Of a stretch of DNA of 64,000 bases, positions 1,966 to 46,975 are shown in pieces; the stretch's first letter is position 1, and the number at the start of each line of letters is the position of its first letter. The notes under the pieces were generated by a model, which did no database searches, had not been told where the DNA came from, and was given only the letters and a program-made list of their open reading frames with translations. A program made the position numbers and the translations under genes. The stretch is from an uncultured Verrucomicrobiae bacterium (GTDB lineage Bacteria > Verrucomicrobiota > Verrucomicrobiia > Chthoniobacterales > Terrimicrobiaceae), in assembly GCA_963744345.1 (NCBI GenBank), contig CAVUTD010000013.1, positions 20,415 to 84,414 of the forward strand, written 5' to 3'.

Positions 1966-2799
1966 TTAGCCTTTCACTGCACCGAAGGAGAGGCCCCGAA
2001 CCAGGTGCTTCTGAATTAGCAGCGCAAGGATCACTTCCGGCAGCGCTGAAAGCAGTGCTGCGGCAGCCACCCACCCGTAATGCACCGTGTCCGAGGCAAG
2101 AAACCTCGTCATCGATACGGTTGAGGTCTGTGTTGAAGCGCCACCGAGTTGCAGCGCAAAGGTGAACGAGTTCCAGCAGAAGATGAAACAGAGCAGTGCC
2201 GCGGCAACGATGCCCGGCTTCACCATCGGCAATAGGACCTTGAAGAATACCTGCCACCAAGAGTACCCGTCGAGCTGGGCAGCCCCCTCAATATCCGGCG
2301 AAATGTCTTCGAAGAATCCCCGAAGAATCCAGATCAAGAGCGGAAGACTTATCAGCTGATACACCCAGATCAAACCGAAGAAACTGTCAATGAGGTGGAG
2401 CTTCTGATAGATGAGGTAGAGGGGGATAATGACCAGAATCTCGGGAGCAAATCGAAAAGAAAGAAAGGTAAACGCGATGTCTTCCCTCCCTTTGAATTGA
2501 TACCTGCCGAGGGCGTAGGCCGCCGGCACTCCTACAATCAGGGAGAGGGTGACGGCCAGGCCGCTGACGATCAGATTGTTCCAAAGTGAGCGCAGGAATC
2601 CCTCCTGTCCGAGGACCGCCTTAAAGTTCTCCAGGGTCGGCGTAAAGATAAAGGTTGTCGTGAACATCTGCTCATCGGGCTTGAAAGAGAGGATCACCAT
2701 CCAGACCAGGGGAAACAGCGCGAAGAGCGCATAGAGAAAGAGCACGAAATTTCTTAGGATCGGGCCTAGCAAACTGAGTATACCTTTGTCCCGATCCAT
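1966..2799 (-). CDS. Carbohydrate ABC transporter permease (MalG-like)
   Basis: 277-aa hydrophobic ORF containing an EAA-like loop (EGAAQLDGYSWWQVFFKVLLP). Tightly packed with the neighbouring transporter genes. Confidence 0.85.
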   Translation of the reverse strand: MDRDKGILSLLGPILRNFVLFLYALFALFPLVWMVILSFKPDEQMFTTTFIFTPTLENFKAVLGQEGFLRSLWNNLIVSGLAVTLSLIVGVPAAYALGRYQFKGREDIAFTFLSFRFAPEILVIIPLYLIYQKLHLIDSFFGLIWVYQLISLPLLIWILRGFFEDISPDIEGAAQLDGYSWWQVFFKVLLPMVKPGIVAAALLCFIFCWNSFTFALQLGGASTQTSTVSMTRFLASDTVHYGWVAAAALLSALPEVILALLIQKHLVRGLSFGAVKG

Positions 2800-2802
2800 A
2801 GA

Positions 2803-3759
2803 TTACACAGCTCCAGAAGCCGCCTTTTGCGCTTTCTTCCAAAATCCAATCAGGATGAAGCAAATCACGTAAATGATGAACCACAAGAAAAGCAGCATCG
2901 GTATGGCTCCGCTAAGGTTGTAATATGGAAAGGCCTCGTTATAAGCCGCGACCGCCACGCTCAGGGTGCGGTCTCCAGGCCCGCCCTTGGTCGTCGCAAA
3001 GATAATGGCGAACTCCTGCAAGGAGGTCATCAATCGAAAGACCAGCGCAATCAAAAGCACGGGCGCAAGCATGGGAAGAGTCAGATTCCAGTAGACAAAC
3101 CACGCAGAGCCCCCGTCAATCAGTGCAGATTCGTAGGGAGACTTCGGCAACGAACGAAGACCTGCCAAAACCAGGATCACCACAAACGGGGTATAAATCC
3201 AAACATCGATGATAATGAGCGAGAACAGCGCCCAGTTCGGATCCGCGCTCCATCGAAAATCTCCGAGTCCAATCCAGCCAAGAGGTATGCGAAGGATACC
3301 GACTGAGGGATTGGTGATCAGGAGCCAAATCAACGCGCCGATTACCGGCGCGATCATGAGGGGAAAAATTAGAACCAGGCGCAAAAATCTCGAGAACGCG
3401 CTCTCGTGATTGAGCAAGAGCGCGATGCACATTCCCAGAACCATTTCCGCCGCCGTCGCGATGAACGCGTACCTCAGAGTTACTCCCACGGAGTGCCAGA
3501 ACTCGGGGTTGGTAAACGTGTCCACGAAATTTTGGAAGCCGACCATCTCATACTCAGGGCTTCGGAGCGTGAGGTCGGTAAAGGAATAAAAGATCGCAAC
3601 GAAGAAGGGTATCAGGATGCCGATCGTCAGCAAAAACGACGGGGCTAGCACCAAGTAGGGCCGCAGCGCCTTCTGACGCGCGTATTTCTCCCCAGCTTCC
3701 GAAAGACTGCTCTGCGGCGGTCTAGTCGCTGGCGCCGAAGGCGATGTTGCCGTGCTCAT
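2803..3759 (-). CDS. Carbohydrate ABC transporter permease (MalF-like)
   Basis: 318-aa multi-TM ORF containing the loop ESALIDGGSAWFVYWNLTLP. It lies 3 nt upstream of the MalG-like gene. Confidence 0.85.
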   Translation of the reverse strand: MSTATSPSAPATRPPQSSLSEAGEKYARQKALRPYLVLAPSFLLTIGILIPFFVAIFYSFTDLTLRSPEYEMVGFQNFVDTFTNPEFWHSVGVTLRYAFIATAAEMVLGMCIALLLNHESAFSRFLRLVLIFPLMIAPVIGALIWLLITNPSVGILRIPLGWIGLGDFRWSADPNWALFSLIIIDVWIYTPFVVILVLAGLRSLPKSPYESALIDGGSAWFVYWNLTLPMLAPVLLIALVFRLMTSLQEFAIIFATTKGGPGDRTLSVAVAAYNEAFPYYNLSGAIPMLLFLWFIIYVICFILIGFWKKAQKAASGAV

Positions 3760-3898
3760 TTCCGTAACAGGTCGCTTCTTGGCTGCTGCGAGTTCAAACG
3801 AGATCTTGTGCTGGGGGGCGCATCAAACGTTTTCTCTCGACCGCGGGAGCGGATGGGCGAACCTGACTCGCCCACCCGCCCGAAAACGGTGCGAACTC

Positions 3899-5287
3899 TT
3901 ATTGGAGCTTCAACTTCGAGGTGTCGCGACTGATCTTCTTTGCCAGGCTCTCCATCGCCTGGGCGGGATCGGCTCCGGAGAGCACAATCTTTTGGAGCGT
4001 CGCAGCCCACTCCGTGGTTGATTGGATGAAGTAGGGTTGAGGTGTAAACTGAATCGCCGTGTTCGGAATCGTCTTGGTAAAGGTGTCGTAATATCCCGCG
4101 ACTTTGCCGATCTTGTCTTTGAACTCCTGGTTATCCCAAACCGACTGGCGCGCCGGATCCACCGTTTTCGCATTCAACGCGGCCCAAAGCGTAAACTCCG
4201 GACCGGTGAAGTACTGCATGAAGAGCCACGCCGCTTTCTTGTTCTTTGAGCTACTGTTCATCGCCAATTGCCATACCCACTCATTAGATTTCGGCTGCTC
4301 ACCAGCCTTAGAGACAGGCGGCGGTGCAAATCCGATATTGCCGGACTGGCTCGTGCTTCCGGGAACATTCTGGAAATACCCATTGATGTCCGCATCATAC
4401 AGTATGGCGGCCTTGCCAGCGCCCAGATCGGCACCGCACTGATACCACGTGTAGTTCGACCATCCCGGAGGTCCTCCCTTCTTGATCATCTCCGCGAACT
4501 TCGCGGTCAAATCAACGGCTGCAGGCTGGCCCAGTGCAGACATGAGCTTTCCACCCTCGACGACGAAGTCCTTGGCGCCCGCGCTGACGAAGCTGCTCAT
4601 ATACCCAGGGTGGATTGTCGCCCAGTTCCGGGTGCCTCTAACCGCGACCCCGTACGATCCGGGACCGTTCCAATCCTTAAGCTTTGCCGCGAGTTCAGAG
4701 AGTTCCTCCAAGGTCGTTGGAACCTTCAAGCCCTTTTCGTCGAAATACTTCTTGTTGTAGGCAAGACAGTAGAGTTCGAAGCCGAGCGGAACGCACCAGA
4801 GCTTGCCGCTGCCCGGAGGCGATCCCGGCGTCAAATCCCACTTGCCCGCGTTGAACACCCCCTCAAAGATGTCCTTGGGGTTGTAATCCGGGCTGGTGGC
4901 GGAGGCGTCGCCGAGCATTTCGTCCAAGGGCTCGATGCGCTTGGCACTCGCATAGTCCCACATCTGGTACACCCCAGTCATGAACACATCCGGCACGCCA
5001 GTGGCCGCCGAAAGCTGCGTCGTGACCTTATCGAAGTAGTTTTCCTCGGGGGTGAGCTCGTATTTGACATCGATTCCCGTCTGCTCTTTGAACTGCGGCA
5101 ACCGCTGAATAATCGCATCCGCATAAGGGTGCTGGTTGAAAGATATGCTAATTGTCTTGCCTTCAGCTTGTTTCCAGTCAAAATCCGCCGCGTCCACGCG
5201 CGGAATGCCTAGCGAAGTGACTGCGAGACTTAGCGATAGAGCCGTTTTTGCCACTAAGCCGTGGCAGGCGTGTTTGGAGAGTTTCAT
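3899..5287 (-). CDS. Extracellular solute-binding protein (family 1, sugar-type)
   Basis: 462-aa ORF with an N-terminal signal peptide (MKLSKHACHGLVAKTALSLSLAVTSLG...). It is the first gene of the permease/ATPase operon. Confidence 0.8.
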   Translation of the reverse strand: MKLSKHACHGLVAKTALSLSLAVTSLGIPRVDAADFDWKQAEGKTISISFNQHPYADAIIQRLPQFKEQTGIDVKYELTPEENYFDKVTTQLSAATGVPDVFMTGVYQMWDYASAKRIEPLDEMLGDASATSPDYNPKDIFEGVFNAGKWDLTPGSPPGSGKLWCVPLGFELYCLAYNKKYFDEKGLKVPTTLEELSELAAKLKDWNGPGSYGVAVRGTRNWATIHPGYMSSFVSAGAKDFVVEGGKLMSALGQPAAVDLTAKFAEMIKKGGPPGWSNYTWYQCGADLGAGKAAILYDADINGYFQNVPGSTSQSGNIGFAPPPVSKAGEQPKSNEWVWQLAMNSSSKNKKAAWLFMQYFTGPEFTLWAALNAKTVDPARQSVWDNQEFKDKIGKVAGYYDTFTKTIPNTAIQFTPQPYFIQSTTEWAATLQKIVLSGADPAQAMESLAKKISRDTSKLKLQ

Positions 5288-5379: not shown

Positions 5380-7503
5380 TCAATTCTTTTGTTTATTCTT
5401 AGTGACTTGTTCGAGGGCGGCAGCAACCACGGCGTCGACAGTGAAGCCGAATTTTTTGACGAGTTTCTGCAAGGGCGCGGACTCGCCGAAGGTTCTCATG
5501 CCAATGCGGGCTCCGTCGATGCCAACGTAGCGCTCCCAGCCGAACCTGGCCGCCTGTTCAACCGAAACCCGGGCGCGAACATTGGAAGGAAGGACAGATT
5601 CGCGATAGGCGTCATCCTGGTCCTCGAAAAACTTCCATGAGGGCATGCTAATGACGCGCGCTTTTACTCCTTGCTTCTTGAGCTCATCCTGAGCGGCGGT
5701 GCACAGAGAGACCTCGCTCCCGGTGGCGATGAGCAAAACGTCTGCTTCGCCCTCGGCGTCGGCGAGAACATACCCGCCTCGCCGCAGCCCGGAGGCGGCG
5801 GCATACTTCGATCGATCGAGCGTGGGCAGTGCCTGGCGGCTCAAGATCAGAGCCACAGGCTCGTGCTTCAACTCGACGATAACGCGCCAGGCCTCGGCGA
5901 CTTCGTTGGCGTCGCAGGGACGGATATCAACGAGACCTGGAACCGAGCGCAGCGCGGCCAGATGTTCAACCGGCTGGTGGGTCGGCCCATCTTCTCCTAC
6001 GCCGATCGAATCGTGCGTGAAGACGTAGATCACCGGTAGTTCCATGATAGCGGCCAGGCGCAGGGAACCTTTTCCGTAGTCGCTGAAGATCAGGAAGCCG
6101 GATCCGTAGGCTCGCAGCTTGGCCAGCGCCAAGCCGTTGAGGATCGCTCCCATGGCGTGCTCCCGAACTCCAAAGTGAATATTCCTGCCCCCCAGAGAAT
6201 TGCGGCTTACTTCCCCCGCCCCCTCAAAGGTAAGGCGCGTTTTGGTTGAGGGAGAAAGATCCGCTGAGCCGCCAAGCAGCCAAGGGTGATGTTTGGCCAG
6301 CGCATTGAGCACCTTGCCTGAAGAGTCCCGGCTCGCGATTCCTTTGGCATCTGCGGGGAAGGTGGGAATCTCCGCATCCCAGCCTTTGGGAGGTTCTCGA
6401 TGTTGAATCGAAAGGGTTTCAGCAGCCAATTCGGGATACTTCTTCTCGTAAGCGGAAAACAAAGACATCCATTCATCGCGAAGCTTCTTGCCGCGATTCC
6501 CAAGCTTCGCCTGGAAATCTTCGCGCACACCGGGGGGAACCAAAAATTTCGCATCCTCTGGCCAGCCGTAATACTTCTTGGCTGCCTTGATCTCCTCTTC
6601 CCCAAGAGGTTCACCGTGCGCCGCGCTGGTGTCTTGTTTGGTGGGTGCGCCGTAGCCGATATGGCTGTCGACAATGACGAGTGTCGGGCGGTCTGTCGTC
6701 TTCTTGAAATGATCGAAAGCTTCCCGCAGGAGGTCCAGGTCGTTCGCATTGGAGACCCGTTCGACGTTCCATCCATAGGCCAGAAACCGTCCGGCAACAT
6801 CCTCGGAAAACGCCAGTGCGGTATGACCCTCAATCGTGATGTGGTTGTTGTCGTAGATCCAACAAAGGTTTGAAAGTCTCAAGTGGCCGGCCAGAGACGC
6901 AGCTTCCCCGCTAATGCCCTCCATCATGCAACCGTCTCCGGCAAGAGCATAGACGTCGAAATCAAAAAGCGGAAAGTCCGGCTTGTTGTACCGACCGGCG
7001 AGCCAATGGCTGGCGAGCGCCATGCCCACGCTGGTGGCTACTCCTTGGCCCAAAGGCCCTGAAGTTGTCTCCACACCAGAGGTCCAGCGATATTCCGGAT
7101 GGCCCGGACACCGGCTTTCCAATTGCCGAAAGTTCTTGAGATCGTCGAGCGGAACTGCCAGGTCGCCCAGCGTTTCATACTTTCGGTTCACCGCCTTTAC
7201 CCCTGTCAGGTGCAGCAACGAATAAAGGAGGGTGGAAGCATGGCCTGCCGAAAGGATAAACCGGTCCCGATTAGGCCAAATGGGATCCTCCGGATCAAAT
7301 CGAAGGAAATCCTGCCAAACCACATAGGCTACGGGCGCCATCGCCATCGGAGTTCCCGGATGGCCTGAATTCGCCTGCTGAACGGCGTCCATGCTCAGCG
7401 TGCGGATGGTGTTGATCGACAGTGAGTCAGCGTTCTGCTGGGAGGCAGGAGCCTTTGGCAGATTATCCGGCTTCAGTCGGGCCTCTCGTATGGCTTCATT
7501 CAT
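5380..7503 (-). CDS. tkt: Transketolase (single-chain, full length)
   Basis: 707-aa ORF. Contains SGHPGTPMAMAP, the ThDP motif GDGCMMEG...NN, and the central/C-terminal motif FTHDSIGVGEDGPTHQPVEHL. Confidence 0.92.
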   Translation of the reverse strand: MNEAIREARLKPDNLPKAPASQQNADSLSINTIRTLSMDAVQQANSGHPGTPMAMAPVAYVVWQDFLRFDPEDPIWPNRDRFILSAGHASTLLYSLLHLTGVKAVNRKYETLGDLAVPLDDLKNFRQLESRCPGHPEYRWTSGVETTSGPLGQGVATSVGMALASHWLAGRYNKPDFPLFDFDVYALAGDGCMMEGISGEAASLAGHLRLSNLCWIYDNNHITIEGHTALAFSEDVAGRFLAYGWNVERVSNANDLDLLREAFDHFKKTTDRPTLVIVDSHIGYGAPTKQDTSAAHGEPLGEEEIKAAKKYYGWPEDAKFLVPPGVREDFQAKLGNRGKKLRDEWMSLFSAYEKKYPELAAETLSIQHREPPKGWDAEIPTFPADAKGIASRDSSGKVLNALAKHHPWLLGGSADLSPSTKTRLTFEGAGEVSRNSLGGRNIHFGVREHAMGAILNGLALAKLRAYGSGFLIFSDYGKGSLRLAAIMELPVIYVFTHDSIGVGEDGPTHQPVEHLAALRSVPGLVDIRPCDANEVAEAWRVIVELKHEPVALILSRQALPTLDRSKYAAASGLRRGGYVLADAEGEADVLLIATGSEVSLCTAAQDELKKQGVKARVISMPSWKFFEDQDDAYRESVLPSNVRARVSVEQAARFGWERYVGIDGARIGMRTFGESAPLQKLVKKFGFTVDAVVAAALEQVTKNKQKN

Positions 7504-8284
7504 AACAACTGTTCACGGGCAAAACATTCCTTAGAATACGCCATTTTCGACCGCCAGGGCGAACCCTGTCATAGAGGGTTCTCCGCTCGGAGCGGCCGTT
7601 TCCAGGCGCTGCCTTCGATGGGAGCGCTCTGCTTCCCCTCCTGGAGTGGTTGAGGAAAAACTCGCACGCTGGTCTTCCAGCAGGTTAAAGCAGAATCCCT
7701 TATAAGAATCGAATCTCCACGCGTGCTGCAACAATTTCTTTCGCACTGTCGCCTCGATCGGACGACCAGCTCGGAGGGCGAGCGTCTTCATTCTCACGAT
7801 AGGGAGGAGCTATTGCGGCAGTCTTGGCGGGAAGTCCCGCTTGGGTGGGTGATTTATTCGCGACATCTGTTCAGAGGCAAGACAATTTTTGTAAAACTTT
7901 TGTCGTTGTTCTTATCAGAAGTGCTTACGAAGGTGTTCGCAGCAAAAGGGTTCAGACAATCATCGGAGAAAGCCGTATGAACGGATGGGGATTTCTTTGA
8001 GATTGAGATAAAAAACTGTTTCCTCGTTGTCGAGGAGACCTTTCTATTGTAGCCATTAGCAATCATTTCGCGACGGCTGAAAGCGTCGTTCAAGAGAGAA
8101 GTGTGGAAGGATGCCGAGTGTGCCGCGCCCATTGAGAACACAATTGCAGTGGAGAAACTCCTGTCGCTGCCCTGCCGCAGGTCAGGATGATGTAAGCGCG
8201 CCTGCCATGACAAGAAGACCTGCCGAGGCAAAGCCAAGAATCCCGCTGCTGCAGCAGGCAAGCCCCACGTCACGATCAAAGAAA

Positions 8285-13012: not shown

Positions 13013-14617
13013 ATGTCAACGAAAACTCTCAAGGAAAACGAATTGCCGCCGATGAGCTCAACCACCGGCCGGATAGAGCATTTCATCAACGGCAAACACG
13101 TCCGAGGGGGAGGACGAACGAGTGACGTCTTTAATCCCGCGACCGGAGAAATCGCCGCGCAAGTCACCTTGGCTTCCGCGGCGGAAGTGGACGCGGCAGT
13201 TTCTGCCGCGCGCGGCGCCTTCCCCGCTTGGTCTAAGCTCTCGGCGCTCAGGCGTTCGCGATACCTTTTCCGTTTCAAAGCCTTGCTCGAAGAGCATCAT
13301 GACGAATTGGCTAAGATCATCACCCGAGAGCACGGGAAGATTTTTTCGGATGCGAAGGGAGAAGTTGTTCGCGGCATGGAGGTGGTTGAGTTCGCCTGCG
13401 GCATTCCGCATTTGCTCAAGGGTCAGCACAGCGATGAGATTGGCGGAGGTATCGACAACTGGAGCACGCGCCAGCCGCTTGGCGTGGTCGCAGGAATTAC
13501 TCCGTTCAACTTTCCTGCCATGGTGCCGATGTGGATGTTCCCAGTGGCTATCGCTTGCGGCAATACGTTTGTCTTAAAGCCCTCCGAACGCGATCCTTCA
13601 ACCTCGATCCGGATCGCGGAATTGCTTAGCGAAGCCGGCTTACCCGATGGCGTCGTCAATGTTGTGCAAGGCGATAAAGTGGCCGTCGATGCTCTTATCG
13701 AGCACCCGCACATCGCCGCACTCTCCTTTGTCGGCTCAACGCCCATTGCCGAGTACATCTCCAAGGAAGCAACCAGACGCGGGAAGCGCGTGCAGGCTCT
13801 GGGTGGCGCGAAGAACCATCTTGTGGTGATGCCCGACGCCGATCTCGATCATGCTGCCGATGCTCTTCTTGGCGCTGCTTACGGATCGGCGGGAGAGCGC
13901 TGCATGGCCATCTCGGTGGCGGTCGCCGTCGGCAAGACCGCGGACAAGCTTGTCCAGAAGCTCAAACCACGCGTGCAGGCTCTAAAGATACGCGAAGGCA
14001 TGGATCCGGAGGCCGAGATGGGTCCGGTCGTCACCGCCACGCACAAGGCGAAGATCGAAGACTATATCGAGGATGGCGTGAAGTCCGGGGCGAATCTGGT
14101 GGTGGATGGACGTGGATTCAAGGCCGCAGGGCACGAGCGCGGCTTCTTTCTTGCCGGGACGCTCTTCGACAATGTCACCCCAGAGATGCGCATCTACCGG
14201 GAAGAGATTTTCGGTCCGGTGCTGTGCATTGTTCGTGTGCCGAACTTTGAGAGCGCGATCGAACTCATCAACAAGCACGAGTTCGGCAATGGCGTCTCGT
14301 GCTACACCCGCAATGGAGGAACCGCGCGTGAGTTTGCCCGGCGCGTTCAGATCGGCATGGTTGGCATAAACGTGCCCATACCGGTGCCCATGGCCTGGCA
14401 TTCATTTGGGGGTTGGAAGCGCTCGCTCTTTGGCGATCAGCACATCTACGGGGAGGAAGGAATTCGCTTCTATACTCGCTACAAGAGCATCATGCAGCGC
14501 TGGCCGGCCGGCGAACCCTCCGCCGTCGAGTTGGCCTATACCTCCGGCACCGAAGGCGATACCTCCACCCAAACCGAAAGCGCGTCCGGCGCGCAATTTG
14601 TCATGCCAACTAATTGA
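13013..14617 (+). CDS. iolA: Methylmalonate/malonate-semialdehyde dehydrogenase (CoA-acylating)
   Basis: 534-aa aldehyde dehydrogenase. Shows the MmsA-type N-terminus (HFINGK...) and the catalytic region GERCMA. It lies directly after iolB. Confidence 0.88.
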
Positions 14618-31361: not shown

Positions 31362-32525
31362 ATGCCAGATGAGAGTAGGCGAAAAGTGAAGGTAGGCATG
31401 GTTGGCGGGGCGCCGGGCGCCGGCATTGCTGGTTCACACCGGATCGCGATGCGCCTGGATGACAGATACTCTTTGGTCGCAGGCGTCTTCTCACGAAATC
31501 CAGAAAAATCACGCGCTGCCGCCAGGCAGCTGGGAGTTCCTGAGGACCGGGCATATTCCGACTATGCAATCATGGCGGAGGCGGAAAGCAAGCGGGGAGA
31601 CAGGGTCGAGGCGGTGACCATTGTGACACCGACCGACAGCCATTACAAAATCGCTAAGAAGTTCCTGGAATCGCGAATGAATGTCATTTGTGACAAACCG
31701 CTCTGCCTCTCGGTCGCGGAAGCTAAGGAATTGAAAGACCTCGCCGAGCAGAAGGGGCTAATTCTTTGCTTAACGCACAATTATTCCGGTTATGCCATGG
31801 TGCGCCACGCTGCACGCATGGTCAGAAATGGCGATCTGGGAGAGATCAAGGTCGTCCAAGCGGAGCACGCCTCCGGGTGGGCTGCGACGTTGCTGGAAAA
31901 GCAAGGCCACACCCAGGCCGCTTGGAGGATGGATCCCACGTTGCTAGGTGACGCTAGCGTTCTCTATGACCTTGGTACCCATGCCCATCAGTTGACGCGT
32001 TTTATTACCGGTCTTGAGGTCACCGAAGTGGCTGCGGAATTGAGCCAGATCGTAGCAGGTCGAGCGATCAAAGACAACGCGAACTTGTTACTCCGGTTTT
32101 CCAATGGCGCGCGCGGAACTCTTTGGGCTTCGATGGCAGCGGTGGGAAACGAACACGGTCTCCGCATTCGTGTCTACGGAGACCGCGGTAGCCTGGCCTG
32201 GCATCAAGAAGATCCTTATCATCTGCGCTATTCTCCCATTGACGGACCGCCTCAGATCCTCGCGCAAGGCGCGGCTTGGCTCTCCCCGGACGCAGACAAA
32301 TGGACGCGCGCGGGACTCGGGCATCCGGAAGGTTTTTTCGAAGCATTTACCAACCTCTACACGGAAGTGGCCGACGCACTCCTTGCCAAAGCTGAGGGGC
32401 AGGCCTTTGCGAAAGCAGAGCTGGGATTCCCCGATGCGTCAGACGGGCTCTGCGGCGTGGCTTTTGTCGAGGCGGCAATGCGCTCTTATAAAGCTGGAGG
32501 TGCGTGGACGACCTTAGAAACGTAG
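31362..32525 (+). CDS. Gfo/Idh/MocA family oxidoreductase
   Basis: 387-aa ORF with the Rossmann motif VGMVGGAPGAGI and CDKPL. It ends with a TAG at 32523-32525. Confidence 0.85.
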   Translation: MPDESRRKVKVGMVGGAPGAGIAGSHRIAMRLDDRYSLVAGVFSRNPEKSRAAARQLGVPEDRAYSDYAIMAEAESKRGDRVEAVTIVTPTDSHYKIAKKFLESRMNVICDKPLCLSVAEAKELKDLAEQKGLILCLTHNYSGYAMVRHAARMVRNGDLGEIKVVQAEHASGWAATLLEKQGHTQAAWRMDPTLLGDASVLYDLGTHAHQLTRFITGLEVTEVAAELSQIVAGRAIKDNANLLLRFSNGARGTLWASMAAVGNEHGLRIRVYGDRGSLAWHQEDPYHLRYSPIDGPPQILAQGAAWLSPDADKWTRAGLGHPEGFFEAFTNLYTEVADALLAKAEGQAFAKAELGFPDASDGLCGVAFVEAAMRSYKAGGAWTTLET

Positions 32526-33277
32526 TAGAAATAAGTCGAGGGTGGGGAGGGGGAAGTGAGGTGAGGAGTGTAGGGGGAGGTGGGGGGTAGGGTGTGATGA
32601 GGTGAGGAGGAGGGTGAGGAGGGGGGTGGAGTGGGAGGGTGAAGTAGGATGGAGGTGAGGAGTGGGAGGGGGTGGAGTGGGAAGGAGTGTGAGGTGGGGT
32701 GGGGGGGGAGGAGGGTAGAGGTGGTATGTGTTGTGGGGAGATGGGGGGGGGGATGGGGGAGAGATAAGGGGGGTGGAGCATATGTGAAGAGGAGGAGAGT
32801 GGGGAAGGTGGGGGATGGTGAGAAAAGTGCGGGAGGATGAGTGAGAATGTGGAGGAAAATGAAGATGGTGAAGGGAGCGAGGGGAGCGCAAGAGGTGGAG
32901 GGGGAAGGAGCAAGATGCAAGATGGAATGAGTGGATAAAGAGGAGGAGAGGAGGAGATGTGATGATAGAAATGGTGGAGTGATAGAGAAGGAGTGGAAGG
33001 GAGAGATAGGGATGGGGGGGTGGAATGAATGGAGTAGAAGGAGAAGAAGCAAAGAAGTGGGTGAATGCACAAAAGGAGGGTATGGGGAAGCAGGAACGCG
33101 AGAAGATAAGAGGGGCGGGGGGAAGCGCGCAAGCCAGCGGCAACGCGAGGGAGTGAGTAGAACATGGAGAGGAGTGGAGAAAAGACAAGGGAGAAGGAAG
33201 TGAAGAAGAGGAGAGGAAAAAAAGAGAGGAAGTAAAAAAAGGAATGCGAAATAAGTATCTCAGAGAAGAAGGATCTT
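32526..33277 (+). repeat. Cytosine-depleted polypurine low-complexity tract (G-rich grading to A-rich), non-coding
   Basis: Manual count gives about 30 C in about 750 nt. There is no C at all at 32538-32778. G-runs reach 10 nt (32743-32752) and A7 runs occur near 33218-33240. Only degenerate short word repeats are present (GGTGAGGAG, GGAGGAGA x2 at 32942-32957). All three minus-strand frames are open purely because of the composition. Confidence 0.9.
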
Positions 33278-34273
33278 ATGATTAAAGTAGCCGTACTCGG
33301 AACAGGTTTCATTGGTTCTGTTCATGCGAAGAATGTCGCACGTCACCCGGCCACGGATTTGGTTGCCGTATGCGACGTGAACCCGGAAGCCGCCGGGAAG
33401 CTGGCAGCCGCGACAGGAGCCAAGGCGGTGGGCGATGCCGCAGAGATTTTCAAGAACAAGGACGTTGAGGCCGTCTTCATCTGCACGTCAACGAACACCC
33501 ACGTTGATTACCTCAAGCGATCAGCTCAAGCGGGCAAGGCGGTCTATTGCGAAAAGCCAATCGGCTTGGATTATCAGGAAGCGGTTGATGCCGTTAGCGC
33601 GGTCCGTGCGGCGAAGGTCCCCGTTATGCTCGGCTTCAACCGCCGATTCGATCCCAACCATGCCGCGCTGTGCGAAGAGGTTCGGCGCGGTGAAGTCGGA
33701 AATTTGGAGATCATTCAGATGACATCACGTGGCCCAAGCTTGCCCGCGATCAGTTACCTGGCTACTTCGGGAGGTCAACTGCGCGACCAGACGGTTCATT
33801 TCTTCGACCTTTTGCGGTGGATCACCAACGATGAAGCCGAAGAGGTGTTCGCCCTTGGAGCCGCTATGGTAGATCCCAAGGTCGCCGAGGTCGGAGATGT
33901 GGACACCAGCGCCGTAACGATTCGGATGACCTCCGGAGCGCTCTGTCAGATCGACTCTTCTCGACGCACGGGTTACGGATACGATGAACGGATTGAAGTC
34001 TTCGGCTCCAAGGGGATGATTGAATCGCGTCGTCAGCGCGCCCGCGGAGTCTCAAGATATTCGGGCGACAAAGTCATTGAGGATGGCCTCCATGCGGGAT
34101 GGTTCGAGCGGATCGAGCAAAGTTATTATCGCGCTCTGGATTCCTTTGCGGAGGCGATCGCTAAGGGCACTCCACCCAGTCCATCGCTTGAGGATGGCTT
34201 GAGAGCTCAATTGCTGGCCGACAAGGCCACGGAATCGCTAAGGACAGGACGATCAGTCACAGTTGCAAGTTAA
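33278..34273 (+). CDS. iolG: Inositol 2-dehydrogenase-like Gfo/Idh/MocA oxidoreductase
   Basis: 331-aa ORF containing VAVLGTGFIGSVH, YCEKP, GFNRRFDP and SGGQLRDQTVHFFD. Confidence 0.75.
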   Translation: MIKVAVLGTGFIGSVHAKNVARHPATDLVAVCDVNPEAAGKLAAATGAKAVGDAAEIFKNKDVEAVFICTSTNTHVDYLKRSAQAGKAVYCEKPIGLDYQEAVDAVSAVRAAKVPVMLGFNRRFDPNHAALCEEVRRGEVGNLEIIQMTSRGPSLPAISYLATSGGQLRDQTVHFFDLLRWITNDEAEEVFALGAAMVDPKVAEVGDVDTSAVTIRMTSGALCQIDSSRRTGYGYDERIEVFGSKGMIESRRQRARGVSRYSGDKVIEDGLHAGWFERIEQSYYRALDSFAEAIAKGTPPSPSLEDGLRAQLLADKATESLRTGRSVTVAS

Positions 34274-35189
34274 TCACTTCTTAAGGTATTCCTTATAGTT
34301 CTCTTGGGTGACAAGCTCGAAAGGGATCCATACAAAGGGCTCAACTTTCTCGCCCTTGATGAGCTTGACCGCGGTCTCCACGGCACCCTTCCCCTGACCA
34401 TTTCCGTCTTGGAAGACGGTCACATCGAGGTTGCCCTTTTCCATCTCAGCAAGCGCGTCCGGTGTTGCGTCAATTCCCCCGATGACAACTTTCTTTGGAT
34501 CCTTGCCGGACTGCTGCAGCGCGAGGATCGCTCCGATTGCCATCTCGTCGTTATTCGCGGCGACGGCGTCGATCGGCGTTCCGGCAACCAACCAGTTGTT
34601 CATGAGGTCGATGGCCTCGCTCCGCCGGAAGTTAGCGGTTTGCTTTCCGACAATTTTCATCTCCGGGTGTTGGGCGACGACTTTTTCTACGCCCTCGGTG
34701 CGCAAAACGGCGGCCTGGGTCGCCAGTTCGCCCACCATGATGACCATATTGCCCTTGTTGTTCAACAATTTGGCGATCGCCTCGCCCTCGAGCTTACCCT
34801 ACACGTTCGCGGTCAGAGGCACCATAGGCGACGCCCTTGGGCAAAGTTTCCTCAGCAGGCCTAAGGTTGACATAGACCAGAGGAATGCCGGCAGCGGTAA
34901 CAAGCTTCGTCATCTTTGGTGTCGCCGTGGTATCGACAGGGTTGATGATGATCGCATCCATCCCCGCAGTTATGAAATTTTGTATCTGATTGAGCTGCTT
35001 TCCGATATCCCCCGAGGCGTCCTCGAATTGGATATCCACTCCCATCTCCTTTGCTTTTGCGGTCATGGCCTCACGGACTTTGACGAGAAAAAGGTGCTCG
35101 AAGGCGGACAGAGTGACTCCGATTTTTTGGGCCATCGCAGACGTCATTAGTGTGGCAAAAGCCGCGAATGCTATTATCAGGCGTTTCAT
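34274..35189 (-). pseudogene. RbsB-like sugar-binding protein paralog, disrupted by a frameshift plus an in-frame TAG
   Basis: ORFs 34794..35189 (signal peptide plus N-lobe) and 34274..34768 (C-lobe) are colinear with the intact protein at 27482..28405. At the junction, ...YGASD switches frame to ANV-TAG-GKLEGEAIAKLLNNKGN. The TAG is at 34799-34801 and the frame change at about 34808-34815. Confidence 0.8.
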
Positions 35190-35500
35190 CTCATTCTCCT
35201 ACCGTTGACACCCCGACATCGGGTGCAGTTCTTTTTCTTGATTCTTGGGGGCACATCACTACCGCGCCTCTAAACTTTCCGTAACGGCTCGGCGCGCGAT
35301 AAGGTTACGGCAAAAACGTTTAGCACGCAAGAGTGTATTACTACCAGTCCAAGCGACGCGAACGTGCCTAAACCACGCGCTTTTCTGTTCACACTACTAT
35401 TCTGATTGACTTTGGCGGACGACCAGCGTACCAAAATAATCGCGAAGCTGGTCGCTCTCGCTTTCCCTTCTAGCTAAGCAATCAGCGTAGTCATTCTCAA

Positions 35501-36600: not shown

Positions 36601-37435
36601 ATGAGATTTTCGATTTGCGCCTGGACGTTTGGGAACACGCCAATTGACAAAGTGTTCGAACTCGTTTCCTCGGCAGGCTATAAATCAATTGACTTAACAG
36701 CTACAGTGGACGCTTGTGATTGGCCTCAAGCCGCTCGACTGGGCGAGAGATTCTCTCTTGAAATCAGCGGCCTCACGTGTGACAGCGGTTGGCCGACTGA
36801 GGATCATGACTTAGCAAATAAAGACGCGTCGAACCGACAAAAGGCTGTCGACTATTTTAAACGCCAGATCGAATGCGTCAGAATCGTTGGAGGTGACTAC
36901 TTGATCGTTGTTCCTTCTGCCGTAGGCAAGTTTCGTTCGATGGCAGGCGATACCAGTGAAGACTGGAAATGGGCCGTTGAATCCGTCGGCAATCTTACGG
37001 AGACTGCGGCGAGCAATCAGGTGGCCCTCGTGATCGAGCCGCTCAATCGCTATGAAAGTTGTGTCGTCAATACCGCTGAAGATGTGTCGCGATTTGTGAC
37101 GGAGGTAAACCATCCAAACGTAAGGGCATTGTTGGACACCTATCATATGAATATTGAAGAATCCGACATGGAGAACGCCTTTCTAACCGTGCGGGATTGC
37201 GTGGAAGTTGTTCATTTTGCCGATAGTAATCGACGTGCCCTCGGTCGAGGGACATATCGATTTCCGGCCCGTGGTAGCCGGCATGAAGGCAATCGGCTTC
37301 GACAAGACCATCGTCCTCGAGTGCACCGCGCCGGGTCCCGATCCGTTCAGAGCCGACAAAGGCGACGCGACGACGCAAACCATGGCACAATATGCAGAGG
37401 AATCACTCGCTAAGCTAAAAGAGTGGTTTACTTGA
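36601..37435 (+). pseudogene. Ketose 3-epimerase-like (D-tagatose/D-psicose 3-epimerase family) TIM-barrel protein, 1-nt frameshift near 37258-37263
   Basis: ORF 36601..37413 carries EPLNRYES...LDTYHMNIEE...VHFADSNRRALGRG and then goes out of frame. ORF 37208..37435 supplies the expected continuation HIDFRPVVAGMKAIGFDKTIVLE. Confidence 0.75.
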
Positions 37436-37511: not shown

Positions 37512-38505
37512 ATGTCTAGAGTAAGGATTGGGATTTTGGGGGCCGGCTTTATTGCCAAGGTGCATATCGGGAATTTGAAAAATGATGAACGCGTCGAAAT
37601 TGCTAGTGTAGTCGACTTGTATTTGGATAAAGCTAAGACGCTTGCCAAGGAAGCGGGACCTCAGGCGAACGCTTTCAGTTCCTTGGACGAGCTATTCGCA
37701 CAGTGAGGTAGACGCGGTCTACGTGACAACGCCTAACACGTTACATGTCGAACCGGTTCTCAAATGCCTGGAAAACAACGTGAACGTATTCTGCGAAAAG
37801 CCAATGGCTACTTCGTTGCGTGAGGCGGAACAAATCAAGGAGGCACAGGCAAAGTCCAAAGGGATTTACAATCTTGGGATGAATATGAGGTATGGTTATG
37901 TCTTTAAGAGAGTAAAAGAGCTAATCGACTCGGGAGAGGTGACGCCTTATATGGTGAACGTAAAACTGAACCGTGGAGAGCTGCTGAATCCGCCGTGGAC
38001 GGCGGACCCTAAAGTGACGGGAGGTTTTCTTTATGAAACGCCGATTCATTTGTTCGACATCTGTCGGTACCTGTTTGGGGAAGTGGCCACCGTGAAGTGC
38101 GAGGCAAGACAGAGTATTTCGCAATCTGAGTTTGATGATTTCGCCGTCCTGCTTACTTTTGAATCCGGGACGATTGGGACCTTCGTAACCTCTGCGCATG
38201 CGGGATGGAGTTATCCTTTTCAGAGGTTGGAGATTTATGGCAAATACTCCACCATCGCAGTGGAAGATATGGAGAAAGTAATTTACGCCCCGGGTCTGAA
38301 GCGGGCAACGGAGGAAAGCGATTTTAAACAGGTTCCCTTTGAGGAAAAATGGGGATATGTTGAAGAAGACCGTCTATTTGTTGATGCGATTCTCAATGGG
38401 ACCAAACCTCCTGTTACGGCAGACGACGGATATCTTTTGAGCAGGCTATTGGATGGAATCTACGAGAGCGCCAAAACAGGTAATCAATTGGATTTTCGTC
38501 AATGA
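37512..38505 (+). pseudogene. Gfo/Idh/MocA oxidoreductase split by a frameshift near 37690-37705
   Basis: ORF 37512..37706 holds the Rossmann N-terminus (IGILGAGFIAKVH...SSLDELFAQ-stop). ORF 37642..38505 continues with SEVDAVYVTTPNTLH...FCEKPMA. Confidence 0.8.
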
Positions 38506-46902: not shown

Positions 46903-46975
46903 CAGCGCATACGGGATTCGAACCCGTGTACCGGCCTTGAGAGGGCCGTGTCCTAGGCCTCTAGACGAATGCGCC
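46903..46975 (-). tRNA. tRNA-Glu (anticodon CUC)
   Basis: Folded by hand. Sequence is GGCGCAT-TC-GTCT-AGAGGCCTAGGAC-A-CGGCC-CTCTCAA-GGCCG-GTAC-ACGGG-TTCGAAT-CCCGT-ATGCGCT-G. The cloverleaf has a TTCGAAT T-loop. CCA is not encoded. The ends are good to about 2 nt. Confidence 0.85.

Follow-up and report, generated by a model that had tools for sequence, protein, structure and literature searches.

A purine-rich 711-nt insertion private to one Terrimicrobiaceae assembly, and its probable technical origin

A sugar operon with an enlarged spacer and its empty site in relatives

We analysed a 64-kb stretch of DNA (hereafter, the window) whose closest genomes belong to the Terrimicrobiaceae/Chthoniobacterales (Verrucomicrobiota), many of these being Microflora Danica (MFD) metagenome-assembled genomes (MAGs). 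Within the window, an inositol-type sugar operon contains two co-oriented genes for oxidoreductases of the Gfo/Idh/MocA family, and a sugar ABC transporter, named as an inositol transport system in other sources, is encoded upstream of both. Over its full length, the first oxidoreductase is 82-89% identical to relatives. The spacer between the two genes (32527-33277, 751 nt) consists of 383 G, 243 A, 95 T and 30 C, and is thus 83% purine. Most of this spacer is occupied by an insert. Since the insert ends before the AAGGA ribosome-binding site of the downstream gene (~33269-33273), that gene retains its own site. The features of the locus are as follows.

31362-32525, plus strand: upstream Gfo/Idh/MocA oxidoreductase gene, 387 aa, intact, with its stop codon 2 nt before the left repeat
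32347-33312, minus strand: spurious Pro/Ser/Leu-rich open reading frame, 321 aa, overlapping both real genes in antisense, with no Pfam match, homologue or periodicity
32528-32536, no strand assigned: left copy of the direct repeat GAAATAAGT, 9 bp, resembling a target-site duplication
32537-33247, no strand assigned: 711-nt insert, delimited against the empty site of same-species strains by BLAST and alignment (loci L082 and L192-L195)
33248-33256, no strand assigned: right copy of the direct repeat GAAATAAGT, 9 bp
33278-34273, plus strand: downstream Gfo/Idh/MocA oxidoreductase gene, 331 aa, intact

Four independent contigs of the same species, found by exact-protein look-up in four different ENA assemblies (ERZ25039456, ERZ25039531, ERZ25039541 and ERZ25039576), are 95.5-98.1% identical to the window. 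All four align with it through position 32536 and resume at 33248, with GAAATAAGT aligning on both sides; therefore, 711 nt are inserted in the window, between the two copies of a 9-bp direct repeat. Each of these contigs shows the empty site ...ACGTAGTAGGAAATAAGTATCTCAG..., in which GAAATAAGT occurs once, and a single copy is what we observed in L082 and L192-L195. In relatives at 88-89% amino-acid identity, the two genes lie 13-35 nt apart, and the reconstructed ancestral spacer, TAG-TAGAAATAAGTATCTCAGAGAAGAAGGATCTT-ATG, fits the spacers of these relatives in length as well as in sequence. A comparable tract was found in none of 162 related loci (1.3 Mb, from GTDB genomes and JGI metagenomes). 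Judged by these alignments, the tract is an insertion private to one assembly.

Sequence content and predicted structures

The insert is purine-rich, with 374 G, 224 A, 86 T and 27 C (53, 31, 12 and 4%, respectively), and its composition drifts smoothly from a G-rich 5' end with 67% G+C to an A-rich 3' end with 36% G+C. It begins with CGAGGGTGGGG... and ends with ...AAAGGAATGC; read inwards, its termini are CGAGGGT (5' end) and GCATTCC (3' end, reverse complement). Its 5' third attracted attention in the original prediction as a stretch devoid of cytosine on the plus strand. By our count, there is indeed no C between C32537 and C32779, that is, over the 241 nt from 32538 to 32778, which contain 158 G, 46 A and 37 T (66, 19 and 15%, respectively) and have a GC skew of +1. 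This run stands as described, but it is not the full extent of the anomaly, which is the entire 751-nt C-poor spacer. The features within the insert to which we refer below are these.

32538-32778, plus strand: C-free, G-rich run, the 5' third of the 711-nt insert
32612-32639, plus strand: canonical G-quadruplex (G4) motif 1
32696-32715, plus strand: canonical G4 motif 2, containing the G8 run
32735-32759, plus strand: canonical G4 motif 3, containing the G10 run
32999-33020, plus strand: canonical G4 motif 4, in the middle of the insert
33202-33232, plus strand: longest uninterrupted purine run of the insert, 31 nt, A-rich, near the 3' end

The C-free run is statistically extreme. At a C content of 27.9%, the chance of a 241-nt run lacking C is ~0.72^241, or ~1e-34 per position by our own arithmetic. 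The runner-up C-free run in the 64-kb window outside the spacer is 35 nt long, and G-free runs in the window reach 27 nt at most. Across ~1.3 Mb of related loci, we found no C-free or G-free run of 58 nt or longer, 58 nt being the length of the shortest among the top 15 single-base-free runs in these loci, all 15 of which are free of A or T.

Apart from its composition, the insert shows the properties of a random heteropolymer. Repetition of 6- to 12-mers is about that of 40-nt block shuffles (z from -0.01 to 1.3), the lengths of the G runs are distributed near-geometrically, and pyrimidines are nearly always isolated, with the dinucleotides TT, TC, CT and CC occurring twice in total, compared to ~18 expected. 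The period-3 z-score is -1.0 for the insert vs 10.0 and 18.7 for the flanking genes. In a two-letter S/W alphabet (G or C vs A or T), 17 of 20 control windows score >3, and codon periodicity was detected in the insert in neither alphabet. Searches of the insert gave no Pfam match, no protein homologue among 5.8 billion clusters, and no DNA match in JGI metagenomes (exact 25-mers), plasmids or phages. Rfam yielded no match at the gathering threshold, nor at E<=1 over positions 32300-33500, and BLAST revealed no second copy of the insert in the 64-kb window or in 1.7 Mb of related loci. No promoter-like or terminator-like sites were found within the insert.

The G-rich content translates into a propensity for G4 formation in silico. 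The G-run example given in the original prediction, GGGTGAGGAGGGGGGTGGAGTGGGAGGG, sits at 32612-32639, and the G8 (32701-32708) and G10 (32743-32752) runs are present at the positions claimed for them. With canonical motifs defined as four or more runs of at least three G with loops of 1-7 nt between them, we identified four non-overlapping motifs, three in the C-free run and one in the middle of the insert, bearing out the claim that such motifs are possible; both strands of the remainder of the 64-kb window were scanned and contain none. G4Hunter, which had been proposed as a check, gave a mean score of 1.82 and a maximum of 3.08 over 32538-32778 (25-nt windows; the usual threshold is 1.2-1.5). 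Because both flanking genes are on the plus strand, the G-rich strand is the non-template strand within the operon, as originally noted. The tract thus combines a G-rich non-template strand and positive GC skew with a conserved operon that is presumably transcribed, features expected of R-loop-prone DNA, and a propensity for R-loops is, like that for G4s, present in silico.

The suggestion of intramolecular triplex (H-DNA) potential fared less well. The complementary strand had been described as a near-pure pyrimidine tract; however, ~15% of the 241-nt run is T on the G-rich strand (85% purine), and purine runs within the C-free run do not exceed 15 nt. H-DNA requires an uninterrupted homopurine-homopyrimidine mirror repeat with arms of ~10 nt or more and a short spacer, and a search for homopurine mirror repeats (arms of 10 nt or more, spacer of up to 8 nt) yielded none. 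The H-DNA potential of the tract is therefore predicted to be weak.

At the RNA level, the 241-nt run can form no canonical helices in the sense orientation: the minimum free energy (MFE) computed with ViennaRNA is 0.0 kcal/mol when G4s are disallowed, compared to -73.9 +/- 12 kcal/mol for genomic segments of the same length, and -112.8 kcal/mol when G4s are included. The antisense RNA, which is G-free and C-rich, is predicted to be unstructured as well (MFE 0.0). The motif GGAGG occurs 17 times in the insert, which amounts to 23.9 per kb vs 1.44 per kb elsewhere. The termination factor Rho prefers C-rich, G-poor RNA. The antisense RNA would accordingly be predicted to provide an excellent Rho loading site, and the sense RNA a very poor one because it contains almost no C.

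Assembly quality and the origin of the insert

The window shows signs of consensus error. Frameshifts affect three conserved genes within a 4-kb segment (at about 34750-34840, at 37249, where GG became GGG, and at 37701); two of the three frameshifts, including the GG-to-GGG change, are single-base insertions that are missing from a sister contig. The window contains five private indels in 11 kb. Each sister contig has different frameshifts, and hence these are consensus errors rather than shared pseudogenes. The same-species contigs bear Flye-style names, and proteins identical to those of the window are present in 'NCBI, ENA' records only. The MFD MAGs, to which close relatives of the window belong, were obtained from Nanopore reads only, using Flye (--meta --nano-hq) and one round of Medaka, with no short-read polishing; MFD samples also have shallow Illumina metagenomes (PMC12313526). 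From the records and this pipeline, we infer that the window is a Nanopore-only assembly. Given that the window resembles an error-prone assembly of this long-read-only kind, the tract may not be real DNA.

On balance, we lean towards the explanation that the sequence content of the insert is a technical artefact, possibly one that marks a real structural difference between strains. Under this explanation, the insert would be junk, or sequence of aberrant composition, introduced by a Nanopore-only read and consensus pipeline (Flye plus Medaka style) into a 33-nt operon spacer. Two routes to such an outcome can be envisaged. A backbone read could have contained an internal stretch of miscalled signal, after which the true flanks resumed within a few bases, leaving the 9-nt overlap, and the junk stretch would have been too long for polishing to remove. 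Alternatively, the polisher could have garbled a site at which co-occurring strains differ structurally, for example, where a minority of reads carried a real insertion with a 9-bp target duplication; this hybrid case, in which a real strain difference was garbled by the consensus step, fits all the observations. By either route, the tract would have no evolved function, and its G4 and R-loop propensity would be incidental to composition.

There are precedents for artefacts of this kind. About 40% of Nanopore reads that had been flagged as chimeric were shown to represent sequencing errors, with the two flanks mapping within 50 nt of each other (Courtine et al. 2020, GigaScience, PMC7500977), and in the same study, Medaka produced inserts 'of aberrant sequence composition' that had no read support. 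The insert resembles this Nanopore junk and the inserts made by Racon and Medaka in that it is of low complexity and without homology, is bordered by flanks that resume within a few bases, and occurs in a single long-read-only assembly with homopolymer frameshifts. It differs from them in that the reported polishing artefacts are rich in A/T homopolymers rather than in G and A, and no exact 9-bp flanking repeat was described for them.

The 9-bp repeat is an argument against an artefact, given that an exact repeat at the junction is what integration at a staggered cut leaves behind, and the chance of such a repeat, estimated from local composition, is ~1e-5. We know of no demonstrated mechanism by which a basecaller or assembler would generate an exact 9-bp flanking repeat. 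The integrity of both flanking genes and the clean junctions also speak against an artefact, and we found no documentation of purine-rich junk produced by the current R10.4.1 models. On the other side, we know of no finished bacterial genome from which a non-repetitive purine polymer of 711 nt has been reported. In a survey of prokaryotes, oligopurine and G-cluster patterns were found to be normally represented (PMC4060949).

We also considered two ways in which the insert could have been derived from ordinary sequence. The G+C content of the insert (56.4%) matches that of the genome (56.2%), and we therefore entertained the idea of a 'purinised' copy, with C converted to G and T to A; this candidate found no support, the S/W match of the insert to the window being no better than that of shuffles and the insert having no codon periodicity in the S/W alphabet. 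For a 'thinned' copy, from which C and T would have been deleted, no source was found in 1.7 Mb, where the best alignment in G/A projection scored 148, compared to 135-143 for shuffles.

Tracts with a superficially similar pattern, namely, G runs followed by at least 150 non-C positions, were found at 28 places in IMG/VR. These look-alikes have C-free runs longer than 170 nt, several of them G-rich, and are heterogeneous, including herpesvirus tandem repeats, Gly-rich coding repeats, poly-G contig ends, a telomere-like array (L190), a C-less coding block in a phage contig (L179) and TT-rich, C-poor junk in the middle of three contigs from one metagenome (L168, L169 and L171). None of the look-alikes shares the sequence or the dinucleotide signature of the insert. 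A shared artefact signature with L168, L169 and L171 was specifically rejected because the dinucleotide statistics differ, and neither of the two look-alikes checked for a comparable flanking repeat (L168 and L169) has one. The clustering of junk in one dataset shows that such tracts can be dataset-specific.

The most serious competitor of the artefact, possible although we consider it the less likely of the two, is that the insert is genuine: a recent, strain-private and non-adaptive insertion of filler DNA that looks template-independent, placed in the operon spacer at a staggered break of 9 bp. The 9-bp direct repeat, present once in the empty sites, is a classic mark of staggered-cut integration, and the G>A>>T>C order of base frequencies, the isolated pyrimidines and the geometric runs fit stacking-driven, template-independent polymerisation. 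Such an order of base frequencies is expected of untemplated polymers from what is known of terminal transferase (TdT), polynucleotide phosphorylase (PNPase) and the A-rule. The A-rich 3' end of the insert also suits this interpretation, as do its computed consequences, that is, an MFE that changes from 0 to -112.8 kcal/mol when G4s are allowed and the density of GGAGG. Candidate sources include the product of non-templated extension by a terminal-transferase-type enzyme or a reverse transcriptase (RT), a reverse-transcribed G/A-rich heteropolymeric RNA tail of the PNPase type, and captured foreign polypurine DNA. Like the insert, PNPase tails and TdT or RT additions are purine-dominated and non-repetitive, with isolated pyrimidines and drifting composition; unlike the insert, they are RNA tails or short DNA additions. 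We know of no pathway that would turn such products into a chromosomal insertion of 711 bp flanked by a target duplication, and of no bacterial process at all that inserts hundreds of untemplated bases with a target duplication. PNPase does make heteropolymeric RNA tails, and these occur in bacteria that lack PAP I (PMC5872136). Genuine filler is further disfavoured by the failure to find another copy or a similar tract and by the confinement of the insert to a single assembly that itself contains consensus errors. In its strongest form, the integration of a template-independent, purine-rich polymer of 711 nt at a staggered break of 9 bp, a phenomenon undescribed in bacteria, the proposal appears improbable.

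The same 9-bp repeat and precise empty site, along with a size within the range of small elements and the A-rich 3' end, could be taken to indicate a non-autonomous mobile element (MITE-like or SINE-like) with a 9-bp target-site duplication. Staggered cuts of 9 bp are made by DDE transposases of the IS1 and IS4/IS10/IS50 types and by some of the IS256 type, and their insertion leaves an exact direct repeat of which the empty sites of sister strains have one copy. However, the insert lacks the terminal inverted repeats of such elements, which are impossible here because an arm free of C offers no pairing partner to a G-rich arm, and its content is random and purine-rich. It has neither an open reading frame nor a match to any family, the window ORFs tested yielded no transposase, and searches of the window, of 1.7 Mb of related DNA and of metagenome, plasmid and phage collections brought up no further copy. 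A mobile element is therefore, in our judgment, very unlikely. Still less credible is an evolved structure-forming element (G4, R-loop or H-DNA) that controls the downstream oxidoreductase gene, as the original prediction implied. The high G4 propensity, the location on the non-template strand within an operon and the complete GC skew of the run would all be consistent with such a role, and immunoglobulin switch regions and the G4s of bacterial promoters and untranslated regions (UTRs) likewise have clusters of G on the non-template strand, G4Hunter scores >1.5 and canonical motifs. Yet the tract is missing from the four same-species contigs and from every related locus examined, and so is not conserved; beyond its composition, it shows no architecture of repeats or motifs, and it lacks H-DNA mirror repeats and promoter-like or terminator-like sites. 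Switch regions are tandem arrays of conserved units, and the G4 elements of bacteria are short as well as conserved, whereas the insert is neither repetitive nor conserved and is private to one assembly. The last alternative, an expanded minisatellite or other tandem repeat, or else low-complexity coding sequence (Pro-rich on the minus strand, Gly/Glu/Arg-rich on the plus strand), is already largely refuted and hardly tenable. Tandem Repeats Finder (TRF) reported arrays with periods of 25 and 33 and 68-76% matches, the range over its arrays being 66-76%; these arrays are no more repetitive than block-shuffled sequence, and k-mer repetition does not rise above that of block shuffles. All three minus-strand frames are open, over 194-321 aa, because a G-free strand permits only TAA stops, and the longest of these overlaps both real genes in antisense; on neither strand is there codon periodicity, a Pfam match or a homologue.

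Implications of an artefact or of a real insertion

If the insert is an artefact, as we are inclined to believe, MAGs built from Nanopore reads only and now used to represent species can carry clean-looking junk on the kilobase scale between intact genes, and such junk inserts can even mimic target-site duplications. Scans of composition for G4, H-DNA or R-loop motifs would then flag junk as spectacular outliers.

If the insert is real, bacteria can gain long, untemplated-looking purine tracts at staggered breaks. The sense transcript of this operon would in that case include a segment without Watson-Crick structure but with many RNA G4s and 17 GGAGG sites resembling Shine-Dalgarno sequences, and the segment would be a strand-asymmetric substrate for Rho, immune in the sense orientation and ideal in antisense. 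Should it be a template-independent polymer, it would rank among the densest G4- and R-loop-prone tracts in prokaryotic transcription units. A real insert would thus amount to a natural test of how an operon tolerates a 700-nt spacer that is G4-prone, structure-free and rich in Shine-Dalgarno-like sites.

Sequence differences around the insert

The stop-codon context of the oxidoreductase gene upstream of the insert varies across the five strains compared (GTAGTAG, GTACTAG, GTCACTAG), and in one sister contig (L082/L193, approximately 14051-14094, versus window 32520-32530) the TAG stop is lost through an indel, with read-through to a TAA that overlaps the start of the next gene. This variation could represent either real microvariation or consensus errors. 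On the 3' side of the insert, a segment of 1198 nt (window 34274-35471), carrying a periplasmic sugar-binding protein gene on the minus strand, is missing in all four same-species ENA contigs, where about 60 nt are found instead, and is present in two more distant relatives (L001 and L002). In the window, this gene contains a frameshift at approximately 34750-34840.

Two further genes in the window are each frameshifted by a single-base insertion:

36601-37432, AP_endonuc_2 gene
37512-38502, Gfo/Idh/MocA gene

Compared with the sister strain, GG is replaced by GGG at approximately 37249, and an extra C is present at approximately 37701. Both insertions look like long-read consensus errors.

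The tRNA gene and its neighbors

Rfam gives a single match within the 64-kb window:

46903-46975, minus strand, tRNA gene

Of the adjoining ORFs that were tested, some encode DUF4440/SnoaL or DUF4410 domains and the others match nothing in Pfam; no integrase or transposase was found in the vicinity.

Composition outliers in related loci and viral contigs

Among the related loci, the 200-nt window with the highest pyrimidine content (73.5% C+T) lies in L026 (11380-11800), and the sequence there is ordinary and structured in appearance. Within the 108-kb viral contig IMGVR_UViG_3300033141_002573 (L190), positions 3131-3337 are occupied by an internal telomere-like tandem array, TAGGGG/TTGGGG.

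In three viral contigs from IMG metagenome 3300041964, C-poor mid-contig stretches extend over 0.2-2.4 kb and include G20-G30 homopolymers:

L168, 701-914
L169, 5955-6538
L171, approximately 2400-4800

In L171 and L169, the G content of these stretches is about equal to the G+C content of the flanks, as though C had been read as G. Because all three contigs come from one dataset, a dataset-specific technical cause is suggested.

The 62-kb viral contig IMGVR_UViG_3300006930_000010 (L179) has a single C in 2.3 kb of its plus strand (5528-7832), which leaves C-free runs of 922 and 1382 nt; the region is not G-rich (38% T, 37% A and 25% G). This region looks like a C-less coding block of a phage, given that it includes plausible ORFs with no Ala, Pro, Thr, His or Gln in their products. 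It is a phenomenon distinct from the C-poor tract of the window, and might be of interest in its own right.
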